Shown: positions 5,147 to 55,005, counted from the first letter of the stretch. The stretch is 55,005 nucleotides of DNA from Thermoanaerobaculia bacterium (GCA_036397955.1 DASWHY010000275.1:1-55005), one strand, 5' to 3'. Numbers and translations: made by a program. Notes: generated by a model from the letters alone, not told the origin.

Positions 5147-5149
5147 GCG

Positions 5150-5848: not shown

Positions 5849-5856
5849 GGGACTCC

Positions 5857-7467: not shown

Positions 7468-7632
7468 GATCGACCCCTTCCTCTGCGTCGCCGGGCGCCC
7501 TCGGGCACCAGGCTCACTCTGTTCGAGCGGACGAGTCCATTATACTGGTTTCTCCGGTCGGATGGTCCCGAATTCTCCGCTTTCGCCGCCGATCGACCCG
7601 GGGCGAAGACCTGGGTTTGAAGGAACCGTCGA

Positions 7633-10032: not shown

Positions 10033-10036
10033 CCAC

Positions 10037-11428
10037 TCAGGGCTCCTCGAAGAAGAGCCCTTCCGCGGCGCCCCGGGTAGAGTTGACGACAGCCCCCTCG
10101 ACGCGGGGAGCGAGGCGCAGCATACCGCCGGCATAGCGCTCACCGACGGTGAAGACACCCCAGACGACGTCGTGGACCGCCGGGCCGCGCGCGCCGTCCA
10201 GGGCCATAAGGGGAGACGGGAGGAGGCGTTTCTGGACGATCCAATCGCCGGCCGCCAGGGCGCGGCTCAGGATCGCTTCCCATCGCGGGGGCGGAGTCGC
10301 GTGCCCCAGGGCGACGCCGGCGCCGCCGCCGGAGCGGCCGGGCTTCATCACCAGGCGCTCGCGCTCGGCGAGCACGAGGTCGCGCAGGACCACCCGGCGG
10401 CCTTCGTGCTCGACCATGCCCGGACGAATCTGGCGGGTCCACGGGACCACCCGGTCGATCAGCGCCCCCTCCTCGGCGGAGAAGAGCCGCCCGGCGTGCT
10501 CCGAGAGCAGCGCCAGGTTGCGCTTGTCGGCGAGGATCAGGGCGACCGGGCCGTTGTAGAGGCGCACCTGCCCCGATTTCCAGGACCTGAAGAGAGGGCC
10601 GCGGTGGGAAACGCCTTGCTCGATCACTGCGGCCACCGGCCGGCGGCCGAGGACGACGCCGCGGGATTCGCTCCGCAGGTCGGCGGCCCGCCCGATCACC
10701 ACCCGTCCCCGGCGGCCCGGGGCCAGCCGCGCCAGGACCCCGGCCAGAGCGTCGCTGGCGTAGGCCTCGATCCCGACGGCCAGATCCGGCGTCAGAGCCG
10801 CCTCGGTGGTCAGGGCGACGTCGAGGTCGCCTCCGTTCGGTGCTGTCGCCGCCAGCGTCTCGCCGACCACGTGCTCGAGGAGGATCGCCATCGACGGTGT
10901 GTGGACGAGATTCACGCCGCTGGCGGCGAGCTCGTCAAAAAAGTCCCTTACCGGCGGCGTCGAGCGGCAGACGGAAGCCAGCCGGCCGAGATCCCAGCCG
11001 CCCGCGAGCCCCAGGTTCACCTCGATGATCCGGGGGCCCGCGCAGGTCCAGAGAAAATCGGTGCGGGCGATCACGCCCTCGAAGCCGCCGATCTCCTCGG
11101 CGATCATCCGCGCCAGGGATGGATCGCCGAGGCGGTAGAAGGCGGCGAGATGCTCGGGGCGGTTGCCGAAGAAGCGTTCGGGAAGCGTCCGCACGAGACG
11201 GACGACGCCGCGGCAGGCAGCGGCGAGCTCCTCCACCGCCGGCCGATCGAGCACGAAGGGCCAGGGCTGGAAAAGGAAAGTCCTGCGCGTGGCAGCCGCC
11301 AGGGAGACGAAGGCGTCGTGGTCGCACCAGCGGGGATCGGCGGCCGCGCGCTCGAGCAGACGCGCCGAGATCGGACCTAGCGCCCGATGGGCTCGGCGGA
11401 CCTCGTCGTCGAGAGGCAGAACGCTCAC
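10037..11428 (-). CDS. ATP-grasp-fold ligase of the glutathionylspermidine-synthase / circularly permuted ATP-grasp group, 463 aa
   Basis: The GTG start at 11428 overlaps the TGA of the TE-containing NRPS (GTGA). By eye, the protein aligns with E. coli YgiC/Gss synthetase motifs: RTDFLWTCAGPRIIEVNLG (RLDLAWDxxGxPKLLExN), ILADKRNLALLSE (ISNKALLPLLWE), LVMKPGRSGGGAGVALG (VVKPxxSREGANV), WIVQKRL (IVQQF), and YAGGMLRLAP...VVNSTRGAAEGLFF (AGIGIRED..ITxxxSRFxPH). The ORF-track entry 10037-12700 is an upstream artefact extension. Confidence 0.6.
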   Translation of the reverse strand: MSVLPLDDEVRRAHRALGPISARLLERAAADPRWCDHDAFVSLAAATRRTFLFQPWPFVLDRPAVEELAAACRGVVRLVRTLPERFFGNRPEHLAAFYRLGDPSLARMIAEEIGGFEGVIARTDFLWTCAGPRIIEVNLGLAGGWDLGRLASVCRSTPPVRDFFDELAASGVNLVHTPSMAILLEHVVGETLAATAPNGGDLDVALTTEAALTPDLAVGIEAYASDALAGVLARLAPGRRGRVVIGRAADLRSESRGVVLGRRPVAAVIEQGVSHRGPLFRSWKSGQVRLYNGPVALILADKRNLALLSEHAGRLFSAEEGALIDRVVPWTRQIRPGMVEHEGRRVVLRDLVLAERERLVMKPGRSGGGAGVALGHATPPPRWEAILSRALAAGDWIVQKRLLPSPLMALDGARGPAVHDVVWGVFTVGERYAGGMLRLAPRVEGAVVNSTRGAAEGLFFEEP

Positions 11429-14400
11429 CCTTCCACCTCCGCCGTCGCGACGGCCCGGTCGAGGGCCTCTCTCAGGGATTCGGCGAGCCCGTCGACCCAG
11501 GGCTCGGCCACGAGGTTCCGATGGGTCCCGGGGACCACCCGGACGTCGAGGCTGGCCGCGAGCTCGCCCCAGCGCTCGACCAGGGGCTCGCGCTCGTCGT
11601 CCGCCCGTTCCTGCGAGAGCACGAGGGTCAGGCGGCCGGGATAGCGCGGCGGCCGGTAGCGCTTCACGAGATCGCCGTTCATCCGCACGACGGAGAGGAT
11701 CGCCCGGGCGTCGTCGAGGTCGAAGTCGCGCGGCAAGGCGCCGGAAGACCGGCCGAGCTCGACCACGTAGCGCAGTTGCTCCTCCTCCTCCATGGCGCGC
11801 AGCTCTTCGGTCGTGCGTTCGATGCTCGAGCCGAGGAGCTCCTTGAGGATCACCGCTTGATCGATCTCGAGGTCGGCGGCCTCGCCGGCGCCGACGAGAA
11901 AGGTGTCGATCACCGCCAACAAGGCTACTTCCGCGCCCTGGCGGCGGAGCGCCTGGGCGACGGCGAAGGCAACCATGCCGCCGAAGGACCAGCCGCCCAG
12001 GCAGTAGCCGCCTCCGGGATGGACCTCGCGCAGGGCCCCGGCATAGACCGCCGCCATCTCTTCGAGGCTCCGGTAGCGGACGTCGGTGCCCACGAGGTGG
12101 AGGGCGTCGAAGCCATAGAAGGGACGCTCGGGCCCTAGCCGACGCGCGAGGTCCTGGTAGCAGAGCGGGCTGCCGCCCAGGGGATGGGCGCAGAAAAAGG
12201 GCGTGGCCTCGCCCCGAGGCTGGAGAGCCACCACCACGTCGCGGCGGCGTATGCCGGGCTCGCTCCGGCGAAGCTGGAGCGCCTGGGTCTCGACGGTCGG
12301 CGCCTCGAAGAGGCTCGCCAGGGAGATCGAGTGGCCCAGATCGCGCTCGATCCGCCCGACGAGCGGGGCCACCAGGAGGGAATGGCCGCCGAGATCGAAG
12401 AAATCGTCGCGCACTCCGACCGGCGCGATTCCGAGGATCTCCTCCCAGACGTGTACCAGCCGCAGCTCTAGGGGATCGCGGGCCGGCTGGTAGGGCTCGG
12501 CCAGCTCCGGACGCGACGTCGAAGGCGCGGGCAGGGCGGCGCGGTCGAGCTTGCCGTTGGGGGTCAGGGGCAGAGCCCCGAGGACGACGAAGGCCGAGGG
12601 GACGGCCGTGGCGGGCAGGGATTCCCGGGCGTGAAGACCGAGCTCGCGGGCGCTCGGCTCCGGTTCGCCGATCGCCGGCACGACGTAGGCCACGAGCCAC
12701 TTCTCGCCCCCGGGGCCGTCGTCGCGCGCCACCACGGCGACGTCGCCTACGTCCGGGTGCGTCCTGAGCGCCGCCTCGACTTCTTTCGGCTCGACCCGCG
12801 CGCCGCGGATCTTGACCTGCTCGTCGAGGCGTCCGCGGAACTCGAGCAGGCCGTCCTCGCGCAGGACCCCGAGGTCGCCGGTGCGGTAGAGGAGATCGTC
12901 GGGATCGTCGCGAAAGGGATTAGCGGCGAAGCGGTCGCCGCTGGAGTCGCCGCCGAGAAAGCCGAGGCTCCGAAACGGCGTTCGGATGACGATCTCGCCG
13001 GGCTCGCCGAGCCCGTGGAGGCGATCTCCCGACAGGATCAATGCCTGGGTCTCGGGCAACGGTCGGCCGAGGGGCTGGATCCCCGGCTCCGGCGGATCGG
13101 GAACCGGGAAGAAACACTTGGCGAGGGTGGTCTCGGTCGGGCCGTAGAGGTTGACGATCTCGCCGGCCACGGCGAAGGTCCGCCGCAGGCGCTCGACGAG
13201 ATCGTCGGCCAAGGGCTCGCCGGCGAAGAAGAGGTAGCGCAGCGCCGAGAGATCGACTTCCCGCGGCGCTCCCGTGAGCCAGGCGCGAGCCACCGACGGG
13301 ACGGCGTGGAGCCCCGTGACGCGCCGCGCCGCGAGCCACTCGGGAAGCCCCGGCGACGCCGCGGTCGTCCCGGGCGGCGGCAGGCAGAGGGTGGCGCCCG
13401 AGGTCAGGGGCAGGAAGACGTCCCGCATGAGGACGTCGAACGACAGGCCGGTGAGCTGGGCGAAGCGCTCGCCGGGCCCGACGCCGAACCGGGCACGCTG
13501 CCAGGCGAGGAAATGGGCCAGGCCGCGGTGGCGACCAAGGACCGGCTTGGGCTTGCCCGTGCTGCCCGAGGTGAAGAAGACGTACGCCGGATCGTCGCCG
13601 CAGACCGCCGGCAGGTCAGCCGCCGCGGCGCCGGCGGCGCTCGCGGAGTCGAGGCGTCGGCGCGCGCCGGCGAGCTCGCGCAGACGCCGTCGCCGCTCGG
13701 CCGGCAAGGCCGGATCGATCGGCACCAGCACGCCGCCCGCGAGCACGATACCGAGGGCGCCGGCGACGAGGTCGGCCGAGCGCGGGCCGGAAAGCGCCAC
13801 GGCCTCGCCCGGAGCAAGACCCTCGGCCCGTAGGTCGGCCGCCACGGCGAGGGCCCGCGCGCGGAGCTCCCGGTAGGTCACGACCCTCCCCTCCTCTTCC
13901 ACCGCCGGTCTCTCCGGCCGGGCCGCGGCCATCTCCAGGAAACGCGACGGCAGGAGGTCGTAGGACGGCACCGGCAGCACCGCCGCGGGATCGGGGAGGA
14001 TCGTCCGGGCCCTCGGAGTGACGAGGGAGAAGTCCCCCAGGCGGCGCTCCGGATCCCCGGCGGCCGTCTCGAGGACGGCGGCGAGCTGGGCGAGGATCTC
14101 GTCGACGGCCTCGGCGGTGAAGCGCCGGGCGTCGTATTTTATGGCCAGGCCGAGGCGCGCGCCGCCGGGTTGGCCGTGGAGGGTGAGGGGGAGGCTCGTC
14201 TGCTCGATGGCGCGGTAGCCGGAGAGCTCGAGGCCGAGCCCGTCGGCGCCCGCCGCGCCGGCGTCGTCGACGGGATAGTTCTCGAAGACGACGATGCTCT
14301 CGAAAAGCGGACGACCCCGCGGCACCTCGCTCCATCCCTGGACGTCGGCGAGCGAGCTCGCCTCGTGGGCTCGAAGCTCCAGGAGCCGCCCCTGGAGCTC

Positions 14401-15345
14401 GGCCGCCGTCTCGTCGAAGGGGCGCCCGGGAACGAGCCTCAAGCGCACCGGCAGGGTGTTCAAGAACAGCCCGACCATACTCTCGACCCCGGCAAGCTCG
14501 GCCGGCCGGCCGGCTACGACGACGCCGAAAAGCACGTCGTGCTCGCCGGACCAGCGGCCGAGGAGCAAGGCCCAGGCGGTCTGGAGCATGGTGCTCGGGG
14601 TGAGGCCGGCGCGGCGGGCGAGGCCCTCGAGGGCGGCGGTCGCCGCCTCGGAGATCGCGGTCTTGCGCTGGTCGTAGAGCTTTCGCGGCAACGGCTCGAG
14701 GCGGCGGGAAAATCCCAGGGGGGTCGGGGCGGTGAAGCCCGCGAGCTCGTGGCGCCAGAAATCCTCCGCCCCTTTCCGGTCCTGCTCCACAAGCCAGGCG
14801 ACGTAGTCGGCGTAGGGCCTCGGCACCGGCAGCTCGACCTCTTCGCCCCGGCGTGCCGCCCGATAGAAGACGAAGAACTCGCGGAAGAGGATCGGCATCG
14901 ACCAGCCGTCGAGGAGCAGGTGGTGATGGCTCCAGACAAACCGGTTGAGCCGTTCCCCGAGGTGGAGGAGCCGGAGCCGGACGAGCGGAGCCGAGGCGAG
15001 ATCGAAGCCGCGCTCGCGGTCTTCGGCCAGCAGCGCGTCGAGGCGGGCGTCGCGCTCGGCGGGATCTACCCCGCGCCAGTCCTCGATCGCCAGGGGAAGG
15101 TCGACGCCGGCGAGCACCACCTGGACCGGCTCGTCGAGGCTTTGCCAGTCGAAGGCGGTGCGCAGCACGGCATGGCGCTCGGCCACCCGCCGCCAGGCCC
15201 GTTCGAAGGCGGTCAGGTCGAGCTCGCCCGCGAGCTCGCAGGTCATCTGCTCGAAGTAAACCCCGGACTCTGGGGCGTAGAGAGTATGAAAGAGCATGCC
15301 CTGCTGCATCGGCGAGAGCGGGTAGACGTTCTCGATCTGACTCAA
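11425..15345 (-). CDS. NRPS, module 10: C(DCL-type)-A-T-TE, 1306 aa
   Basis: The probable TTG start at 15345 (GGAGGG 8 nt upstream) overlaps the upstream stop (TTGA). Motifs: IENVYPLSPMQQGMLFH, SHHHLLLDGWS (~14893-14935), AYVFFTSGSTGKPKP, LSFDVLMRD, NLYGPTETTLAKC, PNGKLDRAAL (~12538-12575), FFDLGGHSLLVAPL (~12368-12412), and TE GGWSFGG (~11978-11998). The 3226-aa ORF-track entry is an artefact upstream of 15345. Confidence 0.93.
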   Translation of the reverse strand: MSQIENVYPLSPMQQGMLFHTLYAPESGVYFEQMTCELAGELDLTAFERAWRRVAERHAVLRTAFDWQSLDEPVQVVLAGVDLPLAIEDWRGVDPAERDARLDALLAEDRERGFDLASAPLVRLRLLHLGERLNRFVWSHHHLLLDGWSMPILFREFFVFYRAARRGEEVELPVPRPYADYVAWLVEQDRKGAEDFWRHELAGFTAPTPLGFSRRLEPLPRKLYDQRKTAISEAATAALEGLARRAGLTPSTMLQTAWALLLGRWSGEHDVLFGVVVAGRPAELAGVESMVGLFLNTLPVRLRLVPGRPFDETAAELQGRLLELRAHEASSLADVQGWSEVPRGRPLFESIVVFENYPVDDAGAAGADGLGLELSGYRAIEQTSLPLTLHGQPGGARLGLAIKYDARRFTAEAVDEILAQLAAVLETAAGDPERRLGDFSLVTPRARTILPDPAAVLPVPSYDLLPSRFLEMAAARPERPAVEEEGRVVTYRELRARALAVAADLRAEGLAPGEAVALSGPRSADLVAGALGIVLAGGVLVPIDPALPAERRRRLRELAGARRRLDSASAAGAAAADLPAVCGDDPAYVFFTSGSTGKPKPVLGRHRGLAHFLAWQRARFGVGPGERFAQLTGLSFDVLMRDVFLPLTSGATLCLPPPGTTAASPGLPEWLAARRVTGLHAVPSVARAWLTGAPREVDLSALRYLFFAGEPLADDLVERLRRTFAVAGEIVNLYGPTETTLAKCFFPVPDPPEPGIQPLGRPLPETQALILSGDRLHGLGEPGEIVIRTPFRSLGFLGGDSSGDRFAANPFRDDPDDLLYRTGDLGVLREDGLLEFRGRLDEQVKIRGARVEPKEVEAALRTHPDVGDVAVVARDDGPGGEKWLVAYVVPAIGEPEPSARELGLHARESLPATAVPSAFVVLGALPLTPNGKLDRAALPAPSTSRPELAEPYQPARDPLELRLVHVWEEILGIAPVGVRDDFFDLGGHSLLVAPLVGRIERDLGHSISLASLFEAPTVETQALQLRRSEPGIRRRDVVVALQPRGEATPFFCAHPLGGSPLCYQDLARRLGPERPFYGFDALHLVGTDVRYRSLEEMAAVYAGALREVHPGGGYCLGGWSFGGMVAFAVAQALRRQGAEVALLAVIDTFLVGAGEAADLEIDQAVILKELLGSSIERTTEELRAMEEEEQLRYVVELGRSSGALPRDFDLDDARAILSVVRMNGDLVKRYRPPRYPGRLTLVLSQERADDEREPLVERWGELAASLDVRVVPGTHRNLVAEPWVDGLAESLREALDRAVATAEVEG
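11428..12250 (-). other. thioesterase (TE) release domain
   Basis: Motifs: PFFCAHPLGGSPLCYQDLARRL, nucleophile elbow GGWSFGG (~11978-11998), and C-terminal PGTHRNL with the His. Confidence 0.85.
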
Positions 15346-18300
15346 TTCCTGCCCTCCGCGCGCCGGCCGCCGAACTTCTTCAGCAGGCGGTCGAGCTTTG
15401 CCTGATCGGTCCTGATCAGGGGGAAATCGCTCGGCACGGCCACCGTCGGCTCGCCGGCGCGGCTCGCGGCGACCAGGGCGCGGAGGTGCTCGAGATGCCT
15501 CTCGGCCAGGCCTTCGATGGTCGAGCGGCGGTGGAGGCTCCGGCTGTAGCGCCAGGTCAGGCGCAGCGCGCCCCCCGCCACAAGAGCGCTGATCTCGAAG
15601 ACGTGGGGACGTTGCCATCGGGGGCTCCGGAGCGCTCCGGGGCTTTCCGCCGCGATCGCGAAGAGCGCCCCGGCCGAGCCGGCGGCGGAGGCTCCGCCGT
15701 CGACCTGGCCGAGGTAGTTGAACATCACCTCTGCCTGCGGCCCGCACGCCAGCTCGCGAGCCACCGCCTCGCCGCACAGATTGTGCAAGAGGCCGTAGCC
15801 CAGGCCGCGCCGGGGAATCGCCCGCAGACGCTCCTTCACCGCGCGCAGGGTCGCCACCGGATCCCGCTTTCCCGGCGGCCCGGCGGCCTCGACCTCCACC
15901 GGGTAGACGGCGGTGAACCAGCCCACGGTGCGCGAGAGGTCGAGGTCGTCGAAGAGCTCCTCTCGGCCGTGGCTCTCGGTATCGACGAGGAGGGAGGGCT
16001 CGCCGGTGAAGGGCTCGAAGGCCAGGACGAGGGCGGTGAGGAGGGCCTCGTCGGCGCGGGCGCGGAACGCCCTCGCCACCTCCTGGAGGAGAGCCCGGGT
16101 GTCCTCGGCGCCGAGGGCGGCGCTCACCTCCTCCACCGCCCCTTCGAGGTTCTCGCTCCCTGGAAGGTCGCGCGGCAGGGGAACGGGCGCGCGCGCGTCC
16201 GGCCGGCGCCAGAAATCGAGCTCTTCCGCGAGCTCCGGCGAGCGGGCGAAGGCCGCGAGACGCTCGGCCCAGGCCCTGAACGAGGTGGTCTTCGGCGGCA
16301 GGGACGGCTCCCGGTCGGCGATCAAGGCCGCGGCGACGCTCCCCAGGTCCTCGACCAGGAGACGCCACGAGACGCCGTCGATCGCCAGGTGATGGACGGT
16401 CAGGAGAAGGCGGTCGGAGGCGCCGCCGCCGAGGCGGAAGAGCACGACGCGCGCGAGCGGCCCGCGGGCGAGGTCGAGGCTCGTCTCGGCCCGCGCGGCC
16501 GCCGCCTCGAGGGCGCCGCGGCGGCGCGGCACGGGCAAGGCTCCGAGGTCGACGTGGTGAAAGGGCGGCGCCGCGGGCACCGGAGCGTTCTCCTGGAGCC
16601 AGATGCCGCCCTCGCGCCGGAAACGCAGGCGGAGGGCGTCGTGGTGGGCCAGGAGAAGCTCGGCCGCGCGGCGGAAGAAGGCGGGCGCCACGGGTCGGCG
16701 CACTTCGAGCATCAGGGCCTGGTTGAAATGGTGGGGCGACGGCGGGACGGCGTCGAGGAGCCATCTCTGGATCGGCGTCAGGGGCACGGGTCCCACGACC
16801 GGCCCCTGCTCCGCGGCCGGCGCCGCGCCGACCCCGGCCACCGCCGCGAGCTCCCCCAGGGTCTGGTACTGGAAGACCTGCTTCGCGGTCACGACGAGGC
16901 CCCTCTGGCGCGCCCGGGCGGCGACGCGGATGCTCAGGATCGAATCGCCGCCGAGCTCGAAGAAGTGACTGTCGCTTCTCACGTCCCCGACCCCGAGGAC
17001 ATCCCGCCAGACCTCCGCCAGGAGGGCCTCGGCACGGCCCCGGGGAGCCGTTCCCGCGCGCTCCCCCGCGAGGGTCGGGGCGTCGAGGCCGGGCAGGGCT
17101 CCACGGTCGACCTTGCCGCCAGCGGTGCGCGGAAGAGCGTCGACGCGCCGCATCAGCGCCGGCACCATCGCCGGCGGCAGGCTCCGGCGCGCGGACTCCC
17201 AGAGCTCCTCGGCCGGCGCTTCTCCCGCCGTCACGATCCAGGCCTCGAGCCGGCGCCCTCCCGTCGGCCCGGGGCACGCCAAGACCACCGCCTCGGTCAC
17301 GCCCGGCAGGGCCGCGAGACCGGCCTCGACGTCGCCCAGCTCCACTCGCACGCCGCGGATCTTGACCTGATGGTCGGTGCGGCCGAGGAACTCGACGCTG
17401 CCGTCGCCCAGGTGACGCGCGAGGTCGCCGGTGAGATAGAGGCGCTCGCCGGGCGCGCCGTCCGAGCGTGGAACGAAACGCTCGGCGGTCCGCCGCGGAT
17501 GGTCGCGGTAGCCCCAGGCCAGGCCCGCCCCCGCGATCGCGAGCTCGCCGGCGGTCCCCGGCGGCACCGGGCGGGCGCGGTCGTCGAAAAGTAGGATCTC
17601 CTTGTTGGCAATCGGCCGGCCGATCGGCACGACGTGGGGGTGGAGCTCGCCGCCGCAGGTCCAGCAGGAGGCGTCGATCGAGGCCTCGGTCGGCCCGTAC
17701 ACGTTGTGCAGGGCCGCGCGGCTCGCGGCGCGGAAGGCGTCGCGCAGGTCGGCCCGGAGGGCCTCGCCGCCGGAGAAGAGATGGCGCAGGTCGCCGAGGG
17801 CGGCGAAGCGCGGGTCGGCAACCAGCTCGCGCAGGAGGGCGGGCGGGAAATCGGCGATCGTCACCCGGTGCCGCGCCATGAGCTCCAGGAGGTGATCCGG
17901 GTCCTGGTGGCCGTCGCCGAGCGGCAGGACGAGGCGGGCGCCACTCGCCAGGGCGCCGAAGACCTGCCACACCGAGGGATCGAAGGTCAGCGGGATGTTC
18001 TGCAGGAAGCGGTCCTCGGGCCGCAGGGCGAAGGCGCGGCCACGCCAGCGGAGGGTGTTCACCGCCCCGCCGTGGGGCACCATCACCCCCCGGGGGCGGC
18101 CGGTGGAACCCGAGGTGAAGAGGACGTAGGCGAGGTCCCCCGGCCCCGTCCGCTCCGGCGGACGCTCCGCCGGGCGCCCGGCCACGCCGGGGTCGTCGAG
18201 ATCCAGGACGAGACGCGGGGCGCGTCCTCTCGGGCCGCGCTCGGCGAAAGCCGGGGACACGACGAGGAGCCCGGCGCCGGAGTCCTCGAGCATTGCCGCG

Positions 18301-46800: not shown

Positions 46801-49800
46801 AGACGCTCCTCGGGATAGGAGGGGTCGAGAGGCACGTAGGCGCCACCGGCGAGGACCACCGCCGTCAGCGCCACTACCAGCTCGGAGGAACGCTCGGCGA
46901 GGACCGCGACGGGCGTCTCGGGGCCCACGCTGCGGCGGCGAAGGTCCGCCGCGAGGGCCGTCGACGCGCGGAAGAGCTCGCCGTAGCTGAGGCGCGTGGG
47001 GCCTTCCTCGCCGTCGAAGACCACGGCGGGCGCCGTGGGCCGCGCGGCCGCCCGCGCCAGGAGCAGCTCGGAGAGCGGCCGCTCGAGATCGAAGGCGCCG
47101 GCGGCGTCCGCCGGCAGGCCGCGCCACGCGGTGTCGTTCCACTCGAGGCGCACTTGGTGGTCCGCGGCGGGCTCGAGGAGAGGCAGCTCGGCCAAGGGAC
47201 GGTCGGCGCCGGCGGCGACGGCCGCAAGCAGGCGGCGGAAATGGCGCGCCAGGCGTGCGCCGGTGGTGGCGTCGAAGAGGTCGGTGGCGTATTCGAGGTA
47301 GCCTTCCAGCTCCCGGTCCGCCCGGTCGCTGATGAAGAGGCTCAGGTCGAAGAGCGCGCTGCGCCGCTCGACCTCGACCCCGGAGAGGCGCAGGCCCTCG
47401 ACCTCGGCGGACTTGGCCGGCACGTTGAGCACCGCCAGCAGGGTCTGGAAGAGGGCGTTGTGGCTCAGGGCCCGCTCCGGCCCCAGCTCGCGCACCAGGA
47501 CCTCGAAAGGCACGTCCTGATGGGGATAGGAGGCGGTGACCGACGCCTTGACGTCGGCGACGAGCCGGCGGAAGGGCGTCCCGAGGCGCGGCTGGACCCG
47601 CAGGGGCAGGACGGTCGCGAAGCAGCCGATCAGAGGCTCGAGCTCTATCCGGCTCCGCACCCCGCGGCTGTAGCCCAGGACCATGTCGCGGCCGCCGCCG
47701 TAGCGCGCGAGGAGCGTCGCGTAGGCCGCCGTCAGCACCATGAAAAGGGTGCCTCCCTCGTCCCGGGCGAGCCGGCGCAGGGCCGCCGCCGCGGCGCCGT
47801 CGAGCCGGATCGGCACGTAGCCGCCGGCGAAGTCGCGCTCCGCCGGCCGGGGCCGATCGACGGGCAGATCGGCGAGGGTCGGCGCGCCGTCGAGGTGCTC
47901 GCGCCAGAAACCGAGATGGCGCTCGAGCGCCTCGCCCCGGAGCGTCTCGCGCTCCCAGCGAGCGTAGTCGCCGTACTGGATCGGAAGCTCCGGCACCGCC
48001 GCGTCGCCGGCCCCCGCCGCCGCCTCGTAGAAGGCCGCGAGCTCGCGCACCAGGATGGCGTTCGACCAGTCGTCGGAGACGATGTGGTGCAGGGTGATCG
48101 CCAGCAGGTGCTCCTGCGCCGCCAGCCGGACGAGGAGAGCGCGGAACGGCCGGCCCGACCCGAGGTCGAAGGGCCGGCGGACCTCCTCGCCGAGGAGCCC
48201 GCGGGCCTCCCGGCGGGCCGCCGCGAGCGGCACGCCTTCGATCTCGCGGCGCGCGAGGAGCTCCGCCGGAAGCTCCTCGACCGTCTGCACCGGCTCGCCG
48301 TCCACTTCGCTGAAACGGCTGCGCAGGATCTCGTGACGCTCGGCCACGCTGCGCAGCGCCGCCTCGAGGGCGTTCACGTCGAGGGGGCCCAGGAGCTCGA
48401 GGACGGTGGGATTGTTGTATGCCACCAGGCCCGGCTCGAGGCGGTCGAGGACCCACAGGCGCTGCTGGGCGTAGGCGAGGGGCGCGGGCCCGCTCGCCGG
48501 CCGCCGCGGGATGGGCGCCGTGCGCGGCGGCGCCGCGGACGCCAGGAGCCGGGCGAGGCCGGCGACGGTGGGCGCCTCGAAGACCTTCTCGATCGGCAAC
48601 TCGGCCCCGCGGCGCTCCTGGAGCCGCGCGGCGAGCTGCGTCGCCAGCAGGGAATGGCCGCCGAGCTCGAAGAAGCTGTCGTGGACCCCCACCCGATCGA
48701 GGCCCAACAGCTCCTGCCACAGCTCGGCGAGCTCCTCTTCGCGCTCGTCGCGCGGGGCGAGATAGGGCGTGGCGAGCCCGGGCCGGACGTGGACGGAAGT
48801 GCCGGACGCGCGCGCCGCCCCGGGGGCGGGGGACGCCGGCTGCGAGGCCGGCAGGGGCGGGAGGCCCGCGGCGGCGCCGGCCGCCGCCCGCGGCTCTTCC
48901 TCCACCCAACAGCGCCGGCGCTCGAAAGGATAGGTGGGCAACGGAAGCCGGCGGCGCGCGTCGCCGTCATGGAGCGCCCGCCAGTCGAGGTCGACCCCGG
49001 CGAGCCACAGGCGGGCGCCGGCCCGCAGGAGGAACGCCTCGTCGTCCCCGCGCTCGTGGACCGAGGGCAGGGACGGCAGGGCCAGGGCGTCCTCGGCGTG
49101 GGCGCACGCCTCGTGCTGCAACGCGAGGCTCGTCAGGCTCTGGCCCGGGCCCACCTCGAGCAGGATGCGTCCGGGCTCACGCCAGAGCTCGCCCACGGCG
49201 GCGGCGAAACGCACCGGCTCGACGAGGTGGCGGGCCCAGTGCCCGGGATCGGTCGCTTCCTCCGCGCGGGTCCATTCGCCGGTCACGTTCGAGAGATAGG
49301 GGATCTCCGGCGGCCGCAGCTCGACCTCGGCAAGCCGGCGGCGGAAGGGCTCGACGATCGGCGTCATCATCGCCGAATGGAAAGCGTGGGTGGTGCGCAG
49401 CGGCCGACACAGGTGCCCGTCCTCGGAGAGGCTCGCGGCCAGGTCCCGGATCGCCGCGGGAGGTCCCGCGACGACCGTCAGCTCGGCGCCGGCGACGGCG
49501 GAGAGGGAGAGATCGGGACCGAGGCGCTCGCGCACCGCCGCGGCCGCCAGCGGCACGGCGAGCATGGCGCCCGCCGGCAGGCCGTCGATCAGCTCCGCCC
49601 GCCGCGCCACCACGGCGGCGGCGTCCTCCCAGGACATGACGCCGGCCGCCGCCGCCGCCGTGTACTCCCCCAAGCTGTAGCCGAGCAGGGCTCGCGGCTG
49701 CACGCCCCACGCCATCCACAGCCGCGCCAGGGCGGCCTCCACCGCGAAGAGGGCCGGCTGGGCGAGGCGCGTCCGCGCCAGGGGATCCGCCGCCTCCCCG

Positions 49801-51632
49801 CGGGGCTCGCCACGGCCGAGCATCGACCGCAGATCGGTGCCCGCCGCGCCGCCTCCCGCGGCTCGCGCGTCGCGCGCGAACAGCGCCTTCCTGACGTCCT
49901 CCCCGAGATGGGGCTCGAGGGCCTCGGCGATCTCGTCGAGAGGCTCCCGGAAAGCCGGCACCCGATCGTAGAGCCCCTTCGCCATGCCGGCGTGGTGCTC
50001 GCCGAGGCCGGGAAAGAGGAAGGCCACCGGACGCTCCGCCAGGCGCTTCACCCCTTCGAGGAGACGCTCGGGATCGCGCCCGGCAAGGGCGGCCGCGGCC
50101 TCGCCGGCGCCGGCGGCGAGCAGGGCCCGGCGATGAGGAAAGGCCCGGCGGCCCACCTGGGTGGTGAAGGCGAGGTCGGGCACGTCCTCGTCCGGGGCCG
50201 CGCGGAGGCGCCCGGCCAGACGGTCGGTGGCGGCCTCGAGGGCTTCGGGGGTGCGGGCCGAGATCAGGAGGAGGCTGCTCGACCAACGCGAAGGCGCGGC
50301 GGGCGGCGGCGCCGGGGCCTCTTCGAGCACCACGTGAGCGTTGGTGCCCCCGAGCCCGAAAGCGCTCACTCCGGCCCGGCGCGGACCGTCCTTTCGCGGC
50401 CAGTCGACGAGCGTCGTCGGCACGAAGAAGGGGCTCGTCTCGAGCTCGAGCTTGGGATTGGGCCGCTCGAAGTGCAGGCTCGCCGGGATCTGCCCGTGCT
50501 CCAGGGCGAGGACCGCTTTGATCAGCCCGGCGACCCCCGCCGCGGCGTCGAGATGTCCGATGTTGGACTTGACCGAGCCCAGGGCGCAGGTCCCGACCTC
50601 CACGCCTTCGAAGACCCGCCGCAGCGCTTCCACCTCGATCGCGTCGCCCAACGGCGTGGCGCTGCCGTGGCCCTCGACACAGCCCAGGCTCGCGGGCTCC
50701 ACCCCGGCCAGGGCCAGGGCATCGGCGATCACCCGCGTCTGGCCCTGGATGCTCGGGGCGGTGAAACCGGCCTTGCCGTCGCCGTCGTTGTTGATCGCCG
50801 AGGCGCGGATCACGGCGCGGATCCGGTCACCGTCGGCGAGGGCGTCCTCAAGGCGCCTCAGAACGACGACGCCGACCCCGTTGCCGCTGACCGTGCCGCG
50901 CCCGCGGGCGTCGTAGGAGCGGCAACGGCCGTCCGGCGACTTGATGCCGCCCGTGGCGTAGAGATAGCCCCGGCGATGGGGCACGGCGATGGAGGCACCG
51001 CCGGCGAGCGCGAGGTCGGACTCGCCGCTGAGCAGGCTCTGACAGGCCAGGTGTACCGCCACCAGGGACGTCGAGCAGGCGGTCTGGACGCTCAGGCTCG
51101 GCCCCGTCAGGCCGAGCTTGTACGACACCCGGGTGGCGAGGAAGTCCTTGTCGCTTCCGAGCAGGTCGTGGTAAGCGGTCGCCTTGCCCGGGAGCAGGAA
51201 GTAGTGGACGTAATAGGAATTGGTGCTCGTCCCGGCGTAGACGCCGATCGGGCCGCCGAAGCGCTTCGGATCGCAGGCGGCGTTCTCGAGGGCTTCCCAG
51301 GAGCACTCGAGAAACAGCCGCTGCTGAGGATCGAGCAGCGAGGCTTCGCGGGCGTTGTACCCGAAGAAGGCGGTGTCGAAGAGCTCGACGTCCTCCAGCG
51401 TTCCGGAGGCCTTGACGTAGTCCGGGTCCGCCAGTTGCGCGGCCGGGACGCCCGCGGCGAGAAGCTCCTCGTCGGAGTGCTCGCGGACCGACCCGACCCC
51501 CGCCGCCAGGTTCTCCCAGAAACGCTCCACGTCGGGAGCGCCGGGGAAACGGCCGGCGAGCCCGATGACGGCGATGCCCTCGGCCTCTTCGCCGAGCGCG
51601 CCGTCACGGATCCGGTCGTCGTCCCGCGCCAT
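43842..51632 (-). CDS. hybrid PKS-NRPS, modules 1-2: KS-AT-T-C(LCL-type)-A-T-E, 2596 aa
   Basis: ATG 51632 lies 2 nt after the stop of the free-standing C-domain gene.
- KS: TACSTSLVAVHLAC (~51060-51090), EGHGSATPLGDAIE, SNIGHLD.
- AT: FPGLGEHHAGM (~49981-50030), GYSLGEY (~49660-49682), HAFHS.
- Carrier: FFELGGHSLLATQL (~48641-48685).
- C: LAYAQQRLWVLDRLEP (~48430-48480), HHIVSDDWS (~48066-48092).
- A: AYLIYTSGSTGRPKG, FDVSVWE, NLYGPTEAAVDVT, SGKIDRRAL (~45590-45630).
- T: GGDSIVAL (~45425-45470).
- E: HHLVTDGVSWRILLEDL (~44825-44878).
The ORF-track entry extending to 52421 is an artefact. Confidence 0.95.
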   Translation of the reverse strand: MARDDDRIRDGALGEEAEGIAVIGLAGRFPGAPDVERFWENLAAGVGSVREHSDEELLAAGVPAAQLADPDYVKASGTLEDVELFDTAFFGYNAREASLLDPQQRLFLECSWEALENAACDPKRFGGPIGVYAGTSTNSYYVHYFLLPGKATAYHDLLGSDKDFLATRVSYKLGLTGPSLSVQTACSTSLVAVHLACQSLLSGESDLALAGGASIAVPHRRGYLYATGGIKSPDGRCRSYDARGRGTVSGNGVGVVVLRRLEDALADGDRIRAVIRASAINNDGDGKAGFTAPSIQGQTRVIADALALAGVEPASLGCVEGHGSATPLGDAIEVEALRRVFEGVEVGTCALGSVKSNIGHLDAAAGVAGLIKAVLALEHGQIPASLHFERPNPKLELETSPFFVPTTLVDWPRKDGPRRAGVSAFGLGGTNAHVVLEEAPAPPPAAPSRWSSSLLLISARTPEALEAATDRLAGRLRAAPDEDVPDLAFTTQVGRRAFPHRRALLAAGAGEAAAALAGRDPERLLEGVKRLAERPVAFLFPGLGEHHAGMAKGLYDRVPAFREPLDEIAEALEPHLGEDVRKALFARDARAAGGGAAGTDLRSMLGRGEPRGEAADPLARTRLAQPALFAVEAALARLWMAWGVQPRALLGYSLGEYTAAAAAGVMSWEDAAAVVARRAELIDGLPAGAMLAVPLAAAAVRERLGPDLSLSAVAGAELTVVAGPPAAIRDLAASLSEDGHLCRPLRTTHAFHSAMMTPIVEPFRRRLAEVELRPPEIPYLSNVTGEWTRAEEATDPGHWARHLVEPVRFAAAVGELWREPGRILLEVGPGQSLTSLALQHEACAHAEDALALPSLPSVHERGDDEAFLLRAGARLWLAGVDLDWRALHDGDARRRLPLPTYPFERRRCWVEEEPRAAAGAAAGLPPLPASQPASPAPGAARASGTSVHVRPGLATPYLAPRDEREEELAELWQELLGLDRVGVHDSFFELGGHSLLATQLAARLQERRGAELPIEKVFEAPTVAGLARLLASAAPPRTAPIPRRPASGPAPLAYAQQRLWVLDRLEPGLVAYNNPTVLELLGPLDVNALEAALRSVAERHEILRSRFSEVDGEPVQTVEELPAELLARREIEGVPLAAARREARGLLGEEVRRPFDLGSGRPFRALLVRLAAQEHLLAITLHHIVSDDWSNAILVRELAAFYEAAAGAGDAAVPELPIQYGDYARWERETLRGEALERHLGFWREHLDGAPTLADLPVDRPRPAERDFAGGYVPIRLDGAAAAALRRLARDEGGTLFMVLTAAYATLLARYGGGRDMVLGYSRGVRSRIELEPLIGCFATVLPLRVQPRLGTPFRRLVADVKASVTASYPHQDVPFEVLVRELGPERALSHNALFQTLLAVLNVPAKSAEVEGLRLSGVEVERRSALFDLSLFISDRADRELEGYLEYATDLFDATTGARLARHFRRLLAAVAAGADRPLAELPLLEPAADHQVRLEWNDTAWRGLPADAAGAFDLERPLSELLLARAAARPTAPAVVFDGEEGPTRLSYGELFRASTALAADLRRRSVGPETPVAVLAERSSELVVALTAVVLAGGAYVPLDPSYPEERLAFMLADSGAAVLLVQPRFAGRLPAGDAELVELSPPEWTPSGVRFTPPPLSPENGAYLIYTSGSTGRPKGALNSHRAIVNRLAWMQRSYPLGEGDRVLQKTPMSFDVSVWEFFWPLLAGAGLVVARPDGHRDPAYLVDLVARQAVTTLHFVPSMLEPFLAEPGVERLRSLRRVIASGEALPAGLVRRFAERLPGVALENLYGPTEAAVDVTAWPARRAERDGLPFGTAPLGRPIAGVVLRLVGRGGRPRPIGAPGELLIGGAAPARGYHGRPATTAERFVPDPAAELPGARLYRTGDLARYRADGTTDFLGRIDHQVKLRGFRVELGEIEARLVEHGAVRAAAVVIREDGGPRRLVAYWSGTGAAGEPELRAHLGARLPEYMVPAVFVELPDLPLTPSGKIDRRALPAPPAASAEAAGEAPRGETERTLAAIWSDVLGVDAVTRQDRFFQLGGDSIVALRVVFRAREAGLALTPRQIFQHPTLAELAAVAERGDREAVPQGPVAGEMPLTPVIHWFLDRDLPAPEHWNQAVMLRPVRAWTRADGDRLRRVAARLLAHHDALRLRLRREARGWRLENAGLDAVDPGGDVPAAEVDLRGLAGDPRPVLEIAAARVQASLRLDRGPLVRLVAFALPRGEARLLIVAHHLVTDGVSWRILLEDLGALWTDDAGGEAPLPPKTSSYRDFARRLAEHAEAGGARAELGLWRRQVEAETASLLALARDGADPAANLEATAERTVLELDAETTRRLVRELPEDAGVRLEDLLLAALARTIAGATGVPRVRVDLESHGREERDGLDLSRTVGFFTSVHPLTFDLRGREGPAAALAVVLERRRAVPELGVGWGVLRYLDPDPVIRGELAATPPSEVLFNYLGILDQALPAGAPFTAAEESPGGLRGPRGRRAHLLELNAAVADGRLRMTWSTSRAVHAPEVVAALAAGCRREVAALLEVDLAAVAAEAARPAEIDESLSAEDLETIFSQLEGNVTR
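49130..50030 (-). other. AT domain, module 1, with non-canonical motifs GLGEH / GYSLG (HAFHS retained)
   Basis: It reads FLFPGLGEHHAGM where GQGSQ is expected, and GYSLGEY where GHSxGE is expected. The RTTHAFHS malonyl-type motif is present. Confidence 0.75.
50330..51590 (-). other. KS domain, module 1 (Cys-His-His intact)
   Basis: The domain runs from IAVIGLAGRFPGAPDVERFWENL to GGTNAHVVLEEAP (~50318-50356). The active-site TACSTS is at ~51060-51090. Confidence 0.85.
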
Positions 51633-51634
51633 GC

Positions 51635-53011
51635 TCAGCTTCCTCCGTCCATGCTGATGCGGACGAGCTCGTCGAGCGAGCGGTCGGGATCCGCGGCCGC
51701 CGCCGCGAAAAGCCGCCGGCAGCGCTCGGCCCAGCCTTCGACCGTCGCCCGCTCGAAGAGGTCGGTGTCCCACTCGAAACCGATCGTCAGGGTGCCGCCG
51801 GCGTCGATGCCGTTGATGGCGAGGTCCAGCATCGCCCCGGCGCGGGAGACGACGCGAGGCTCGAAGGTCACCGGCCCGAGCTCCACCCCGCCCGCGCCGC
51901 CGCCGAAGAGGCGCGCGAGCCGCGCGTCGGCGTCGTCCACCAAGGTCAGGAGCACTTGATAGAGGGGCGAGCGGCCCGAGTCGCGTTTCGGCAGCAGGCG
52001 CTCGACCAGCAACGGGAAAGGCAGGTTCTGCTTTTCGAGGGCCTCGTCCAGGACCTGCCGGGCGTGGTCGACGTGGCGGCGGAAAGTCCGCGTCCGGTCG
52101 CAGGTGCCACGGAGGACGATCGGATTGATGAAATAACCCACCGTCTTCTCGAACCGCGGCTCGGGACGCCCCGGAGCCGGCCAGCCCAGGACGACCTCGT
52201 CCCGACCGCCGATGCTCCCGAGGAGCACCTGGAAAAGCGCCAGGAGGACGACCTCGAAGCCGACGCGCTCCGCCTCGGCCAAGGCCCGAAGCCGCGCTCT
52301 CGGCTCGCCGAGCGCGAAGCGCAGGACGTCGCCCCGGAAGCGCCGGGCCGGAGGACGGGGGCGGTCGGTGGGAAGGTCGAGGGGCGGCAGGTCGGCGAGG
52401 CGTGCCGTCCAGTACGCCCATTGCTCCGCCGCACCGTCGCCGGCGAGAAAGCTCTCCTCCCAGCGCGCGAAATCTCCCGGATGGGCCTCGGGCTCGTCGA
52501 GGAAGACCTGCTCGCCCGACTCCTCGACGGCGAGGAAGAGACCCAGCTCGTCGAGCAGATGGGCGATCGAGAAGAGGTCGGCGGCGACGTGGTGGAGCGA
52601 GAAGAAAACCACCGCGTGGTCGGCGTCACGCCCGAGGACCCGCAGGCGGACCACCGGTCCGTTCTCGAGATCGAAGGGGGTCTGGGCTTCGCGCGCGAGC
52701 CGCTCGTCGACCTCGGCCTCGCTCCAGGCGGCGGCGTCGACCTCCTCGAAGTCGATGGCGCGGCGCGGCTGGATCCATTGCCAGGGCCGCCCTTCGACCA
52801 TCGGGTAGGTCGTACGCAGGACCGCGTGCCGGTCGGCCAGGGCCTGGAAGGCCCGCCGCCAGGTGGCGCCGGACAAGGGGGGCGTCACCCGGCCGGCGTA
52901 CCTCAGGTTGTACGCCGTCAGGCTCGGCGCCAGCTTCTGGAGGAACCAGAGGGCACGCTGGCCGTAGCTGGGCGGAAAAAGCTCACCTGGACCGGAAGTT
53001 CCGACCTCCAT
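51635..53011 (-). CDS. free-standing NRPS condensation-domain protein (VibH-like architecture), ~458 aa
   Basis: Motifs: FPPSYGQRALWFLQKLAP, intact HHVAADLFS (HHxxxD), PTDRPRP, and GYFINPIVLR. There is no A or T domain. The preferred start is ATG 53011 (GAGGTGGAG just upstream; MEVGTSGPGELFPPSYGQ). Alternative in-frame starts are GTG 53020, ATG 53062 and TTG 53101 (the ORF-track start). Confidence 0.85.
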   Translation of the reverse strand: MEVGTSGPGELFPPSYGQRALWFLQKLAPSLTAYNLRYAGRVTPPLSGATWRRAFQALADRHAVLRTTYPMVEGRPWQWIQPRRAIDFEEVDAAAWSEAEVDERLAREAQTPFDLENGPVVRLRVLGRDADHAVVFFSLHHVAADLFSIAHLLDELGLFLAVEESGEQVFLDEPEAHPGDFARWEESFLAGDGAAEQWAYWTARLADLPPLDLPTDRPRPPARRFRGDVLRFALGEPRARLRALAEAERVGFEVVLLALFQVLLGSIGGRDEVVLGWPAPGRPEPRFEKTVGYFINPIVLRGTCDRTRTFRRHVDHARQVLDEALEKQNLPFPLLVERLLPKRDSGRSPLYQVLLTLVDDADARLARLFGGGAGGVELGPVTFEPRVVSRAGAMLDLAINGIDAGGTLTIGFEWDTDLFERATVEGWAERCRRLFAAAAADPDRSLDELVRISMDGGS

Positions 53012-53152: not shown

Positions 53153-53306
53153 GTCTCACGGTCTCACGCCCTAAGGGGATGAGACCGTGAGACAAACCGT
53201 CTCACGGCGTGAGAGAGCGATGAGACGCAGAGCCCAAACCCCGCGGGAAATCTGGCTGCACGGCGTCTCACGGCGTGAGGCAGGCGTGAGAATCCGGTGT
53301 CTCACG
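53153..53306. promoter_or_regulatory. array of GTCTCAC/GTGAGAC heptamers forming palindromes and hairpins (candidate operator array or structured element) upstream of the operon
   Basis: Six perfect copies start at 53153, 53161, 53187 (reverse), 53199, 53265 and 53299, plus at least five one-mismatch copies. There is a perfect 14-bp inverted repeat, GTCTCACGGTCTCA (53153-53166) / TGAGACCGTGAGAC (53180-53193), with a 13-nt loop. The palindrome TCTCACG-G-CGTGAGA lies at 53200-53214 and a near copy at 53266-53280. CGTGAGA-n8-TCTCACG lies at 53285-53306. Confidence 0.6.
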
Positions 53307-53378
53307 GGGGTGCTGAAAACGAACCCCGTTTCCTGGACCGCGGCTCGGACTTGACCTTGCCACCCTTGCCGGGAGCCG

Positions 53379-53495
53379 CGTCCCTGACGAGCACAGGCCC
53401 TGCGGTCGTCAAGGATAACCCGTCCCTGACGAGCACAGGCCCTGCGGTGGTCAAGGACTGATCCGTCCCTGACGAGCACAGGCCCTGCGGTCGTC
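53379..53495. repeat. 42/43-bp tandem repeat, 3 copies
   Basis: The unit cgtccctgacgagcacaggccctgcggt(c/g)gtcaagga starts at 53379, 53421 and 53464. Two degenerate units lie further on (core GCCCTGCGGT at 53625 and 53667, again 42 nt apart). Confidence 0.85.
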
Positions 53496-53587
53496 CGCCG
53501 TCGCATCGAAGCGAGTCCGGCCGACGAGGTCGAAGCGCACCCGGATCGACATTGCGCACGCGCGAGGCGAAGCGAGCCGTCAGGCAC

Positions 53588-53606
53588 CCCCCTTTGAAAA
53601 AGGGGG
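53588..53606. repeat. GC hairpin CCCCCTTT-gaa-AAAGGGGG (REP-like), between the two parts of the 42-bp array
   Basis: An exact 8-bp inverted repeat with a 3-nt loop. It has the same stem/loop geometry as the hairpin in the 57-bp repeat at 29-185. Confidence 0.7.
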
Positions 53607-53701
53607 ACAGGGGGGATTTCCGCAGCCCTGCGGTCATGAAGGACGAATTGCCGTTGAGGACCACAAGCCCTGCGGTCAGGACGCGAGTACCGCTGCAATA
53701 C

Positions 53702-54841: not shown

Positions 54842-54956
54842 TGCGAGTCCTCCGGTTGGCGAAAGCGGTTTGTCGGGGATGGCTGATCGTGGTGGCCACC
54901 ACGTGCGTTTCTATTCATCGTTTACGGAGATAGGATCAGGAGCGTTGGGACGCACG

Positions 54957-55005
54957 ATGATCGCCGAGACGATGATCGCCGAGACGCCGCGCCTGGTGCT
55001 GCGCC
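54957..55005 (+). CDS. 5' end of a probable GNAT-family N-acetyltransferase (partial, runs off the window)
   Basis: It reads MIAETMIAETPRLVLR. The ETxRLxLR motif is the usual RimJ/RimL-type GNAT N-terminus. Only 16 codons are visible, and the first 30 nt are a 15-bp tandem duplication. Confidence 0.35.
   Translation, partial: MIAETMIAETPRLVLR

Follow-up and report, generated by a model that had tools for sequence, protein, structure and literature searches.

Introduction

Assembly lines of the thiazole/thiazoline type include those built around epothilone EpoB and myxothiazol MtaC/D as well as the bleomycin line, and free-standing condensation (C) enzymes are represented by VibH of the vibriobactin pathway and PapA5 of mycobacterial polyketide synthase (PKS) pathways. 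The nearest described kind of system to the one treated here is the myxobacterial thiamyxin line (thiA-J; PMC10100342), a thiazole/thiazoline-forming hybrid of non-ribosomal peptide synthetase (NRPS) and PKS modules, whose module 5 is a transfer-only C-T. The abundant Acidobacteriota carry a wealth of biosynthetic genes, with few characterised natural products (PMC13083261). Here we analyse a stretch of 55,005 nt from a Thermoanaerobaculia bacterium (GCA_036397955.1 DASWHY010000275.1:1-55005; the window), of which positions 10037–53011 hold seven genes, g1 to g7, encoding a hybrid NRPS-PKS line (g1–g6) followed by a putative ATP-grasp ligase (g7). In our reading, which we hold to be probably but by no means certainly right, g1–g7 make up the last two-thirds, at the downstream end, of a large collinear hybrid cluster that appears functional and is fed by an upstream NRPS, the upstream end of the window is mis-joined, and g7 acts as a post-release ligase.

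The line shares with thiamyxin-type systems the collinear arrangement of modules, thiazoline formation by Cy-A-T, thiazole formation through an Ox domain embedded in an adenylation (A) domain, an MT insert in an A domain, epimerization (E) domains followed by DCL-type C domains, interleaved PKS and NRPS modules and a type I thioesterase (TE). It differs in module order and count, in the lack of a GNAT start, cMT or P450, and in that both PKS modules are devoid of KR, DH and ER domains; further features unlike thiamyxin-type lines are an E domain after a Cy module, a free C protein before a ketosynthase (KS), and an ATP-grasp protein of the glutathionylspermidine synthetase (GspS) type after the TE. 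Literature searches revealed no characterised cluster with this order, and its status as an orphan is on that basis likely but unproven. A paper on thiazoles from Acidobacteriota (PMC13083261) was considered as a match and rejected, as it concerns peptides made by the ribosome and modified after translation (RiPPs).

Results and Discussion

Upstream Boundary of the Cluster

Further assemblies of the same organism were found by exact-protein look-up: L008 (from the 125,688-bp contig ERZ27256803:k141_3052092, which has the cluster at ~52–122 kb) and L009 in ENA, L010 and L007 at JGI, and the short contigs L004–L006. The first four match the window at 99.8–99.9% identity, but only up to position 53495, and the three short contigs match only the side that bears a weakly secretin-like open reading frame (ORF), from positions 53379, 53555 and 53660, respectively, onward to 55005. 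The flank switch falls within 32 nt shared without mismatch by both arrays of a 43-nt tandem repeat (Table 1; consensus about GACGACCGCAGGGCCTGTGCTCGTCAGGGACGGATCAGTCCTT, with one hairpin per unit possible by eye). The array comprises 7.7 copies in L008, L009, L010 and L004 and is shorter in L007; beyond its array, L004 runs into unrelated sequence. From these sequence comparisons, the secretin segment at 53496–55005 most likely represents an assembly mis-join via the dispersed 43-nt repeat. If the join is artificial, the 379-aa secretin-like ORF and the adjacent 175-aa ORF lie outside the cluster.

The arrangement seen in the window might instead be real, in that recombination between 43-nt arrays in a subpopulation has placed the secretin gene beside g1 and beheaded the cluster, with nothing or a truncated product being made. 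Indeed, a repeat that shares long identical stretches between at least two loci can give rise to recombination just as it can to mis-assembly, and the other end of the window likewise differs from other assemblies. Nonetheless, we consider this very unlikely, as the NRPS-side junction is present in four assemblies from four samples and no second contig among the assemblies compared shows the hybrid secretin-array-g1 junction; moreover, the secretin-side contigs are all shorter than 2 kb and end in or before the array or, in the case of L004, go elsewhere.

On the NRPS side, a co-directional gene for a 5,327-aa NRPS, called in two independent ENA assemblies (L008, L009), ends 1.1 kb upstream of g1. 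The C-terminal 2,966 aa of its product read (C)-A-T-C-A-T-C-A-T, with C domains of the LCL type and A-domain codes DALWLGGTFK (Val), DLTKIGHIGK (Asp) and DFWSVGMVHK (Thr). The protein terminates in a carrier (T) domain plus a 45-aa basic tail and carries no TE; ending in a carrier without a release domain, it needs a downstream partner. That it feeds g2 is suggested mainly by a junction conserved in L167, a 5.8-Mb contig from a different organism. There, a C-A-T protein with a Thr-like code (DLWNIAMVHK) and a similar basic tail is translationally coupled to homologues of g1 and g2, and it best matches the final module of the upstream NRPS (46% identity over 1,112 aa). Because the 5,327-aa NRPS is T-terminated and the junction of a Thr module, a free C protein and a KS recurs in L167, the line probably has ~15 modules or more, not 10. 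An earlier note on this DNA had described a self-contained 10-module unit of ~43 kb starting at the C protein and the KS; this is not borne out, given the probable mis-join at the repeat and the upstream NRPS in four other assemblies.

Attempts to retrieve a fuller sequence of the upstream NRPS returned, for a 398-aa piece, matches of at most 58% identity and, in a scan of metagenome contigs, relatives of at most 54%; an exact look-up of a 192-aa upstream fragment from L010 found nothing. The upstream NRPS also contains a near-identical internal duplication of a C domain's C-terminal half and the linker (L008 1–700 versus ~6200–6900), which points to recent duplication of modules or to recombination.

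The free-standing C protein g1 belongs to a clade of ~50 such proteins of ~500 aa (41–46% identity), several of them encoded in metagenome-assembled genomes (MAGs) of Thermoanaerobaculia. In the three loci looked up (L167–L169), each homologue is translationally coupled to a KS-AT-T-C-A-T gene whose product is 51–54% identical to g2 (AT, acyltransferase). The AT motif GYS[LV]GE is common to g2 and these homologues (4/4), and PGLG[DE]H was matched in g2 and L168 only. Like VibH and PapA5, g1 is a lone C protein with an HHxxxD motif encoded beside carrier-bearing megasynthases; unlike them, it belongs to a ~500-aa clade of its own and is paired with a KS-AT(GYSxG)-T-C-A-T gene in all four loci examined. 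As to its role, it might transfer the chain, dehydrate the Thr before it or acylate an unusual extender.

Several points weigh against our reading and partly in favour of a self-contained 10-module line that is begun by the free C protein and the KS-AT-T cassette, the upstream NRPS then being a pathway that is adjacent or acts in trans. The cassette opens its operon in L168 and L169, where the genes upstream are unrelated and include no NRPS; apparently, it is able to start a line, which keeps this model alive. The g1-type gene is always coupled to the KS gene rather than to the upstream gene, and the 1.1-kb non-coding gap with its hairpin repeat array leaves separate transcripts for the upstream NRPS and g1 possible. 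In addition, the start of the line is not seen, both long contigs stopping ~3.6 kb past the 5,327-aa gene; the g2 AT is without canonical GHSxG and GQGSQ motifs; three of the eight A domains (codes 6–8) are without assignable substrate; and we know of no mechanism in which carrier and KS need a C domain between them. We nevertheless judge a self-contained line rather unlikely, in view of the co-directional, T-terminated upstream NRPS without a release domain and the translational coupling of the Thr module, C protein and KS in L167. Likewise, both KS domains retain the active-site Cys, so that an acyl or peptidyl primer is needed, whereas g1 and g2 contain no loading A, AL or ACP, and no loading module was found anywhere in the window.

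No Rfam family matches the 43-nt repeat, and promoter/terminator and Rfam scans of the 1.1-kb gap and the array returned only sub-threshold miRNA-like hairpin matches.

Domain Architecture and Predicted Chemistry

Domain order was established with Pfam and a profile map built on the window's own domains, which together gave 8 A, 10 T, 13 C-superfamily, 2 KS and 2 AT domains and 1 TE (Table 1). A domain string this long and regular is no chance pattern. All catalytic motifs checked are intact (HHxxxD of C, the A cores with Lys517, the T Ser, Cys-His-His of KS, Ser and HAFH of AT, GxSxG of TE).

Clustering of the 13 aligned C-superfamily domains of the window together with two from the upstream NRPS yielded four groups, namely four DCL-like domains, four LCL-like ones plus the divergent g1, two Cy and four E domains. 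Each of the four DCL-like domains, with the N-termini YGLSPLQQGILFH, YALAPLQEGLLFH, YPLSPMQEGMLFH and YPLSPMQQGMLFH, comes after an E domain. The LCL-like group consists of two window domains (LAYAQQRLWVLDRLEP, LSFAQERLWFFDQLEP) and the two from the upstream NRPS, with g1 as an outlier at 30–33% identity to its members. In the Cy domains, DVLLFD (g3) and DFLVGD (g4) are found, i.e., DxxxxD instead of HHxxxDG, and the four E domains carry HHLxxDGxSW and E(G/S/A)HGREE. Ser is kept in all 10 T domains, of which the four before an E domain read GGDSI and the rest GGHSL or GGTSV. Signatures of C-domain subtypes are said to have been worked out by Rausch et al. in 2007; the subtypes given here were assigned by motif and by clustering of the 15 domains.

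A-domain codes were extracted on GrsA numbering (Table 1). The assignments of Ser, Thr and Cys to codes 1–5 presuppose the Stachelhaus code as we take it to read. Codes 6–8 are not assignable, and literature searches for DVRTFALLCK, DPWDFGVIDK and DVRHFALLAK found no paper; we assume that DPWDFGVIDK is basic (Arg-like) and that DVR[TH]FALL[CA]K is remotely phenylglycine-like. Modules 8 and 10 have closely related A domains, with A3 motifs TSGTTAVPRAV and TSGSTGKPKPV and an acyl-CoA-ligase-like A6 (GEIVLRTPFRSLGY); Asp235 and Lys517 are kept. Within the Thr-type A domain of g3, an MT insert displays LLEIGCGTG and NEMVRFRYDAV, motifs that we take to be of the N-methyltransferase type. The Ox insert, also in g3, matches Pfam Nitroreductase with 44 bits (cut-off 23.5) at residues 2428–2599, between A8 and A10, and contains RYRYASAGSLYPVQ.

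In both KS domains, TACSTS, the first His and GH are retained, and both AT domains show HAFH, presumably a malonyl signature. The g4 AT is canonical (GHSIGE, PGQGSQH), whereas the g2 AT is atypical in reading GYSLGE and PGLGEHH instead of GHSxG and PGQGSQ, with Ser, Arg and HAFH retained. No KR, DH or ER domains were found in the window. The TE of g6 features GWSFG and a C-terminal His.

The enzymological reading of the earlier note turned out to be right, while its limits for the cluster were wrong. Pfam, the profile map and the gene junctions confirm seven co-directional, coupled genes with the domain order and coordinates it had described, and no reductive domains were found. Its logic of DCL domains after E domains and LCL domains after plain carriers is reproduced by clustering and motifs, with a GGDSI carrier before all four E domains. 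The predicted thiazole (Cy plus Ox) and epimerised thiazoline agree with the Cys codes, the DxxxxD motifs of the Cy domains and the nitroreductase-type Ox within the A domain, from which both rings may be expected. The last three A-domain residues had rightly been left open, their codes not being assignable. Finally, the line does look functional: inactivating core-motif mutations were looked for and none was found, the only deviations being the atypical g2 AT and the divergent A3 and A6 motifs of modules 8 and 10.

In the scheme that we propose, a chain ending in Val-Asp-Thr would be transferred to the KS of g2, aided by g1. Then g2 would add an unreduced beta-keto malonyl unit and D-Ser; g3 would add N-methyl-Thr and a thiazole; and g4 would add a second unreduced beta-keto malonyl unit, a D-thiazoline and D-Ser. 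A residue of open identity (X) and a D-residue, possibly basic, would follow from g5, and g6 would contribute a further residue X before chain release by its TE. With ATP, g7 would then activate the product at a carboxylate, that of the C-terminus or of the Asp side chain, for amide formation with an amine, and the ADOP permease encoded next to g7 would export the product.

As a whole, the cluster belongs to an ordinary class, that of uncharacterised modular NRPS-PKS systems, and comes from a phylum already noted for its many such clusters (PMC13083261). What is unusual is the Cy-A-T-E module, the cassette of free C and KS-AT(GYSxG), and the family of megasynthase-associated, GspS-like ATP-grasp proteins. 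An intact line that probably has ~15 or more modules and is predicted to build in a thiazole, a D-thiazoline, unreduced ketides and many D-residues is worth trying in heterologous expression, yet refactoring from the window alone would mean cloning a headless cluster. The ATP-grasp family and the free-C/KS-AT cassette merit more follow-up than the predicted peptide; the cassette is, next to g7, a second recurring and unexplained piece of NRPS/PKS enzymology and is open to direct test.

The ATP-Grasp Protein g7

By sequence profiles, g7 is nearly invisible. It matched nothing in Pfam and NCBIfam even at E≤0.01, and comparison with PF03738, PF04174, PF14403 and PF02955 gave nothing at E≤1. Among 26 relatives compared with curated models, 9 matched CP_ATPgrasp_2 and 6 CP_ATPgrasp_1, all weakly (best E 5.5e-4). 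A search of 5.8 billion proteins yielded 35 relatives, all without names, with GSP_synth found in two and CP_ATPgrasp_2 in one, and a sequence-profile search of the PDB produced sub-threshold GspS-like matches only. By contrast, an AlphaFold model (AF2, 26 relatives) reached a pLDDT of 91.6 and a pTM of 0.92, and its top 47 Foldseek neighbours in the PDB are all glutathione synthetases (GS), GspS/trypanothione synthetases, YgiC/YjfC or 3n6x (E 1e-16 to 1e-8, TM ~0.5–0.64), the GS matches including human, yeast and plant enzymes. It is thus this fold search, with family-profile searches having given nothing, that identifies g7 as a predicted ATP-grasp protein of the circularly permuted GS/GspS branch, and its chemistry is probably that of an ATP-dependent carboxylate-amine ligase. 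The trailing ATP-grasp of the earlier note accordingly stands at the level of the modelled fold, but not as membership in a curated Pfam or NCBIfam family.

Invariant across the g7 family are R122, D124, E136, N138, K302, K362 and R438. In a sub-threshold alignment, R122, D124, E136, N138 and R438 coincide with E. coli GspS R316, D318, E330, N332 and R598, residues that we take to form the Mg/phosphate site. While g7 has the same predicted fold as ligases of the GspS and eukaryotic GS type (PDB 2io7, 2hgs, 3n6x; E. coli YgiC/YjfC; Foldseek E 1e-16 to 1e-11), it differs from these in sequence (9–18% identity), in having no amidase domain and in being encoded in or fused to NRPS/PKS megasynthases.

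The family is large, with 1,056 representatives of 50%-identity clusters at E≤1e-30. Among species-representative genomes it is found chiefly in Thermoanaerobaculia, Holophagales, Aminicenantes and Longimicrobium, and a few members are in Myxococcus and Sorangium; the closest match to g7 in this set is just 40% identical. About 40 of 72 family loci have NRPS/PKS domains within their ~10-kb flanks, in around half of these at a distance of 1.5 kb or less from the gene. A homologue directly follows an NRPS TE in L095 and L110. Fusions with a TE take the form T-TE-g7 in P0191, P0266 and P0224 and C-T-TE-g7, with several g7 copies, in P0156. Other fusions are A-T-g7 (P0246), A-T-g7-KS (P0226) and KS-AT...g7 with two copies (P0158), and multi-copy fusion proteins are P0156, P0157–P0163 and P0166. 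Tandem arrays of three to four g7-type paralogues were found in L126 (7102–11338), L127 (5726–9905), L134 (431–4617), L112 (5887–11386) and L131 (8530–12818).

The coupled TE and g7 genes of the window would represent the unfused form of the T-TE-g7 proteins. On account of the modelled fold, the putative catalytic residues, the homologues that follow a TE and the T-TE-g7 fusions, we favour g7 as a release-linked ligase. It could, however, act on the line itself, for example through an acyl phosphate from which a carboxylic acid is loaded onto a carrier thiol, or through modification of an intermediate bound to a carrier. This is in line with the fusion of a homologue between carrier and KS in P0226, with the one to three tandem g7-type copies located between C-terminated and A-initiated NRPS genes in L126, L127, L135 and L146, and with an arrangement seen in L097, L100, L101, L103 and L111, from several Acidobacteriota genomes. 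Here, a g7 homologue ends an NRPS (C-A-T-g7, in frame with the NRPS in L101 and L111) just before a KS-T-C-A-T gene without an AT (~9600–13400 in each, 2378–6218 in L103), an order that suggests a possible link between the ATP-grasp and PKS modules lacking an AT. Against such a role, which we regard as unlikely for g7, the structural neighbours (GS, GspS, trypanothione synthetase, YgiC/YjfC) all use amine nucleophiles on free peptide carboxylates, and g7 in the window comes after the TE, as in the T-TE-g7 fusions.

We further put forward, tentatively and as a possibility that falls short of being probable, that g7 stands for a large family, so far unannotated, of GspS-like ATP-grasp ligases recruited as integral components of NRPS/PKS lines and that, combined with the free-C plus KS-AT(GYSxG) cassette, it points to an undescribed assembly-line logic of acidobacteria. 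If true, the g7-type ATP-grasp, which recurs in fusion with megasynthases and escapes both Pfam and NCBIfam, would add an ATP-dependent step of tailoring, off-loading or loading that is new.

Downstream Block, Gene Calls and Host

In L092, a g7 homologue (P0002, 42% identical) is part of a block that also has an NRPS-TE gene 51–53% identical to g6, an ADOP permease 46% identical to that of the window, and counterparts of the window genes at 3719–10032 in slightly different order. According to this synteny, the cluster probably reaches downstream to ~3719, perhaps 2178, and does not stop at 10037, where the earlier note had set its boundary. We infer from the same synteny that the accessory block belongs to the cluster, and the ADOP permease, convergent with g7, is likely to be its exporter or resistance gene.

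The seven cluster genes all lie on the minus strand and span exactly 53011 to 10037. At five of the six gene junctions the start codon overlaps the preceding stop (ATGA/GTGA/TTGA), g1 and g2 being separated by a 2-nt gap, and a GGAGG-like site precedes every start. Owing to the high G+C content (62–77% across the window), long ORFs occur in several frames, yet one ORF set alone carries the domains. An overlapping long ORF at 11425–21105 was rejected as a gene, as domains are confined to its last 1,306 codons and a TTGA-coupled start is present at 15345.

Table 1. Genes, domains and repeat in the window, with A-domain codes and substrates
Feature	Position	Strand	Details
g1	51635-53011	-	free-standing C, 458 aa; divergent LCL-like; active site HHVAAD; Pfam Condensation 245 bits
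g2	43842-51632	-	2596 aa; KS-AT-T-C-A-T-E
g2 KS	50466-51581		
g2 AT	49041-50021		
g2 T	48543-48734		
g2 C	47157-48485		LCL
g2 A	45603-47054		code 1, DVWHISLVDK, Ser
g2 T	45339-45518		
g2 E	43944-45281		
g3	35452-43845	-	2797 aa; C-A(MT)-T-Cy-A(Ox)-T
g3 C	42493-43812		DCL
g3 A	39793-42414		code 2, DFWNIGMVHK, Thr; MT insert 40495-40875
g3 T	39520-39702		
g3 Cy	38140-39423		
g3 A	35878-38016		code 3, DLYSLSLIWK, Cys; Ox insert 36049-36564
g3 T	35596-35787		
g4	23180-35455	-	4091 aa; KS-AT-T-Cy-A-T-E-C-A-T-E
g4 KS	34289-35425		
g4 AT	32972-33850		
g4 T	32465-32647		
g4 Cy	31094-32374		
g4 A	29525-30982		code 4, DLYSMSLIWK, Cys
g4 T	29237-29416		
g4 E	27839-29170		
g4 C	26402-27703		DCL
g4 A	24914-26323		code 5, DVWHISLIDK, Ser
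g4 T	24647-24826		
g4 E	23294-24589		
g5	15342-23183	-	2613 aa; C-A-T-C-A-T-E
g5 C	21834-23138		DCL
g5 A	20307-21761		code 6, DVRTFALLCK, not assignable
g5 T	20034-20213		
g5 C	18621-19955		LCL
g5 A	17112-18539		code 7, DPWDFGVIDK, not assignable
g5 T	16842-17021		
g5 E	15453-16784		
g6	11425-15345	-	1306 aa; C-A-T-TE
g6 C	14005-15321		DCL
g6 A	12550-13929		code 8, DVRHFALLAK, not assignable
g6 T	12280-12459		
g6 TE	11473-12201		
g7	10037-11428	-	463 aa; ATP-grasp of GS/GspS type by predicted fold; GTGA-coupled to TE gene
43-nt tandem repeat	53379-53495		2.7 copies; also L008 9304-9633, L004 1511-1841
175-aa ORF	53171-53698		no family match
379-aa ORF	53702-54841		weak secretin matches (Secretin_N 38 bits, Secretin 33 bits)
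ADOP-family duplicated MacB/FtsX permease	7633-10032	+	convergent with g7; TIGR03434 849 bits (cut-off 622), residues 2-799 of 799
Cytochrome c	5857-7467	-	61% identical to syntenic gene of L092
YceI	5150-5848	-	51% identical to syntenic gene of L092
VioC-like FAD monooxygenase	3719-5146	-	50% identical to syntenic gene of L092
Pyr_redox_3 flavoprotein	2178-3752	-	accessory block member

The host is probably an uncultivated bacterium of the Acidobacteriota, class Thermoanaerobaculia, because of the ADOP match (TIGR03434) and the predominance of Thermoanaerobaculia among the relatives of g1 and g7, whose nearest named relatives are Thermoanaerobaculia MAGs; this fits the ADOP-bearing, Acidobacteria-like organism suspected before. 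Also in agreement with what had been noted, no MbtH motif, phosphopantetheinyl transferase or regulator was found among the window genes.

At the low end of the window, a repeat with a period of ~62 nt (..cctctccccctgggagaggggccgggggtgagggttccggagccttcct..) fills positions 1 to ~185. Other assemblies diverge from the window at 182–188 (L002) and 556 (L001), and this end is therefore likewise variable or mis-joined.

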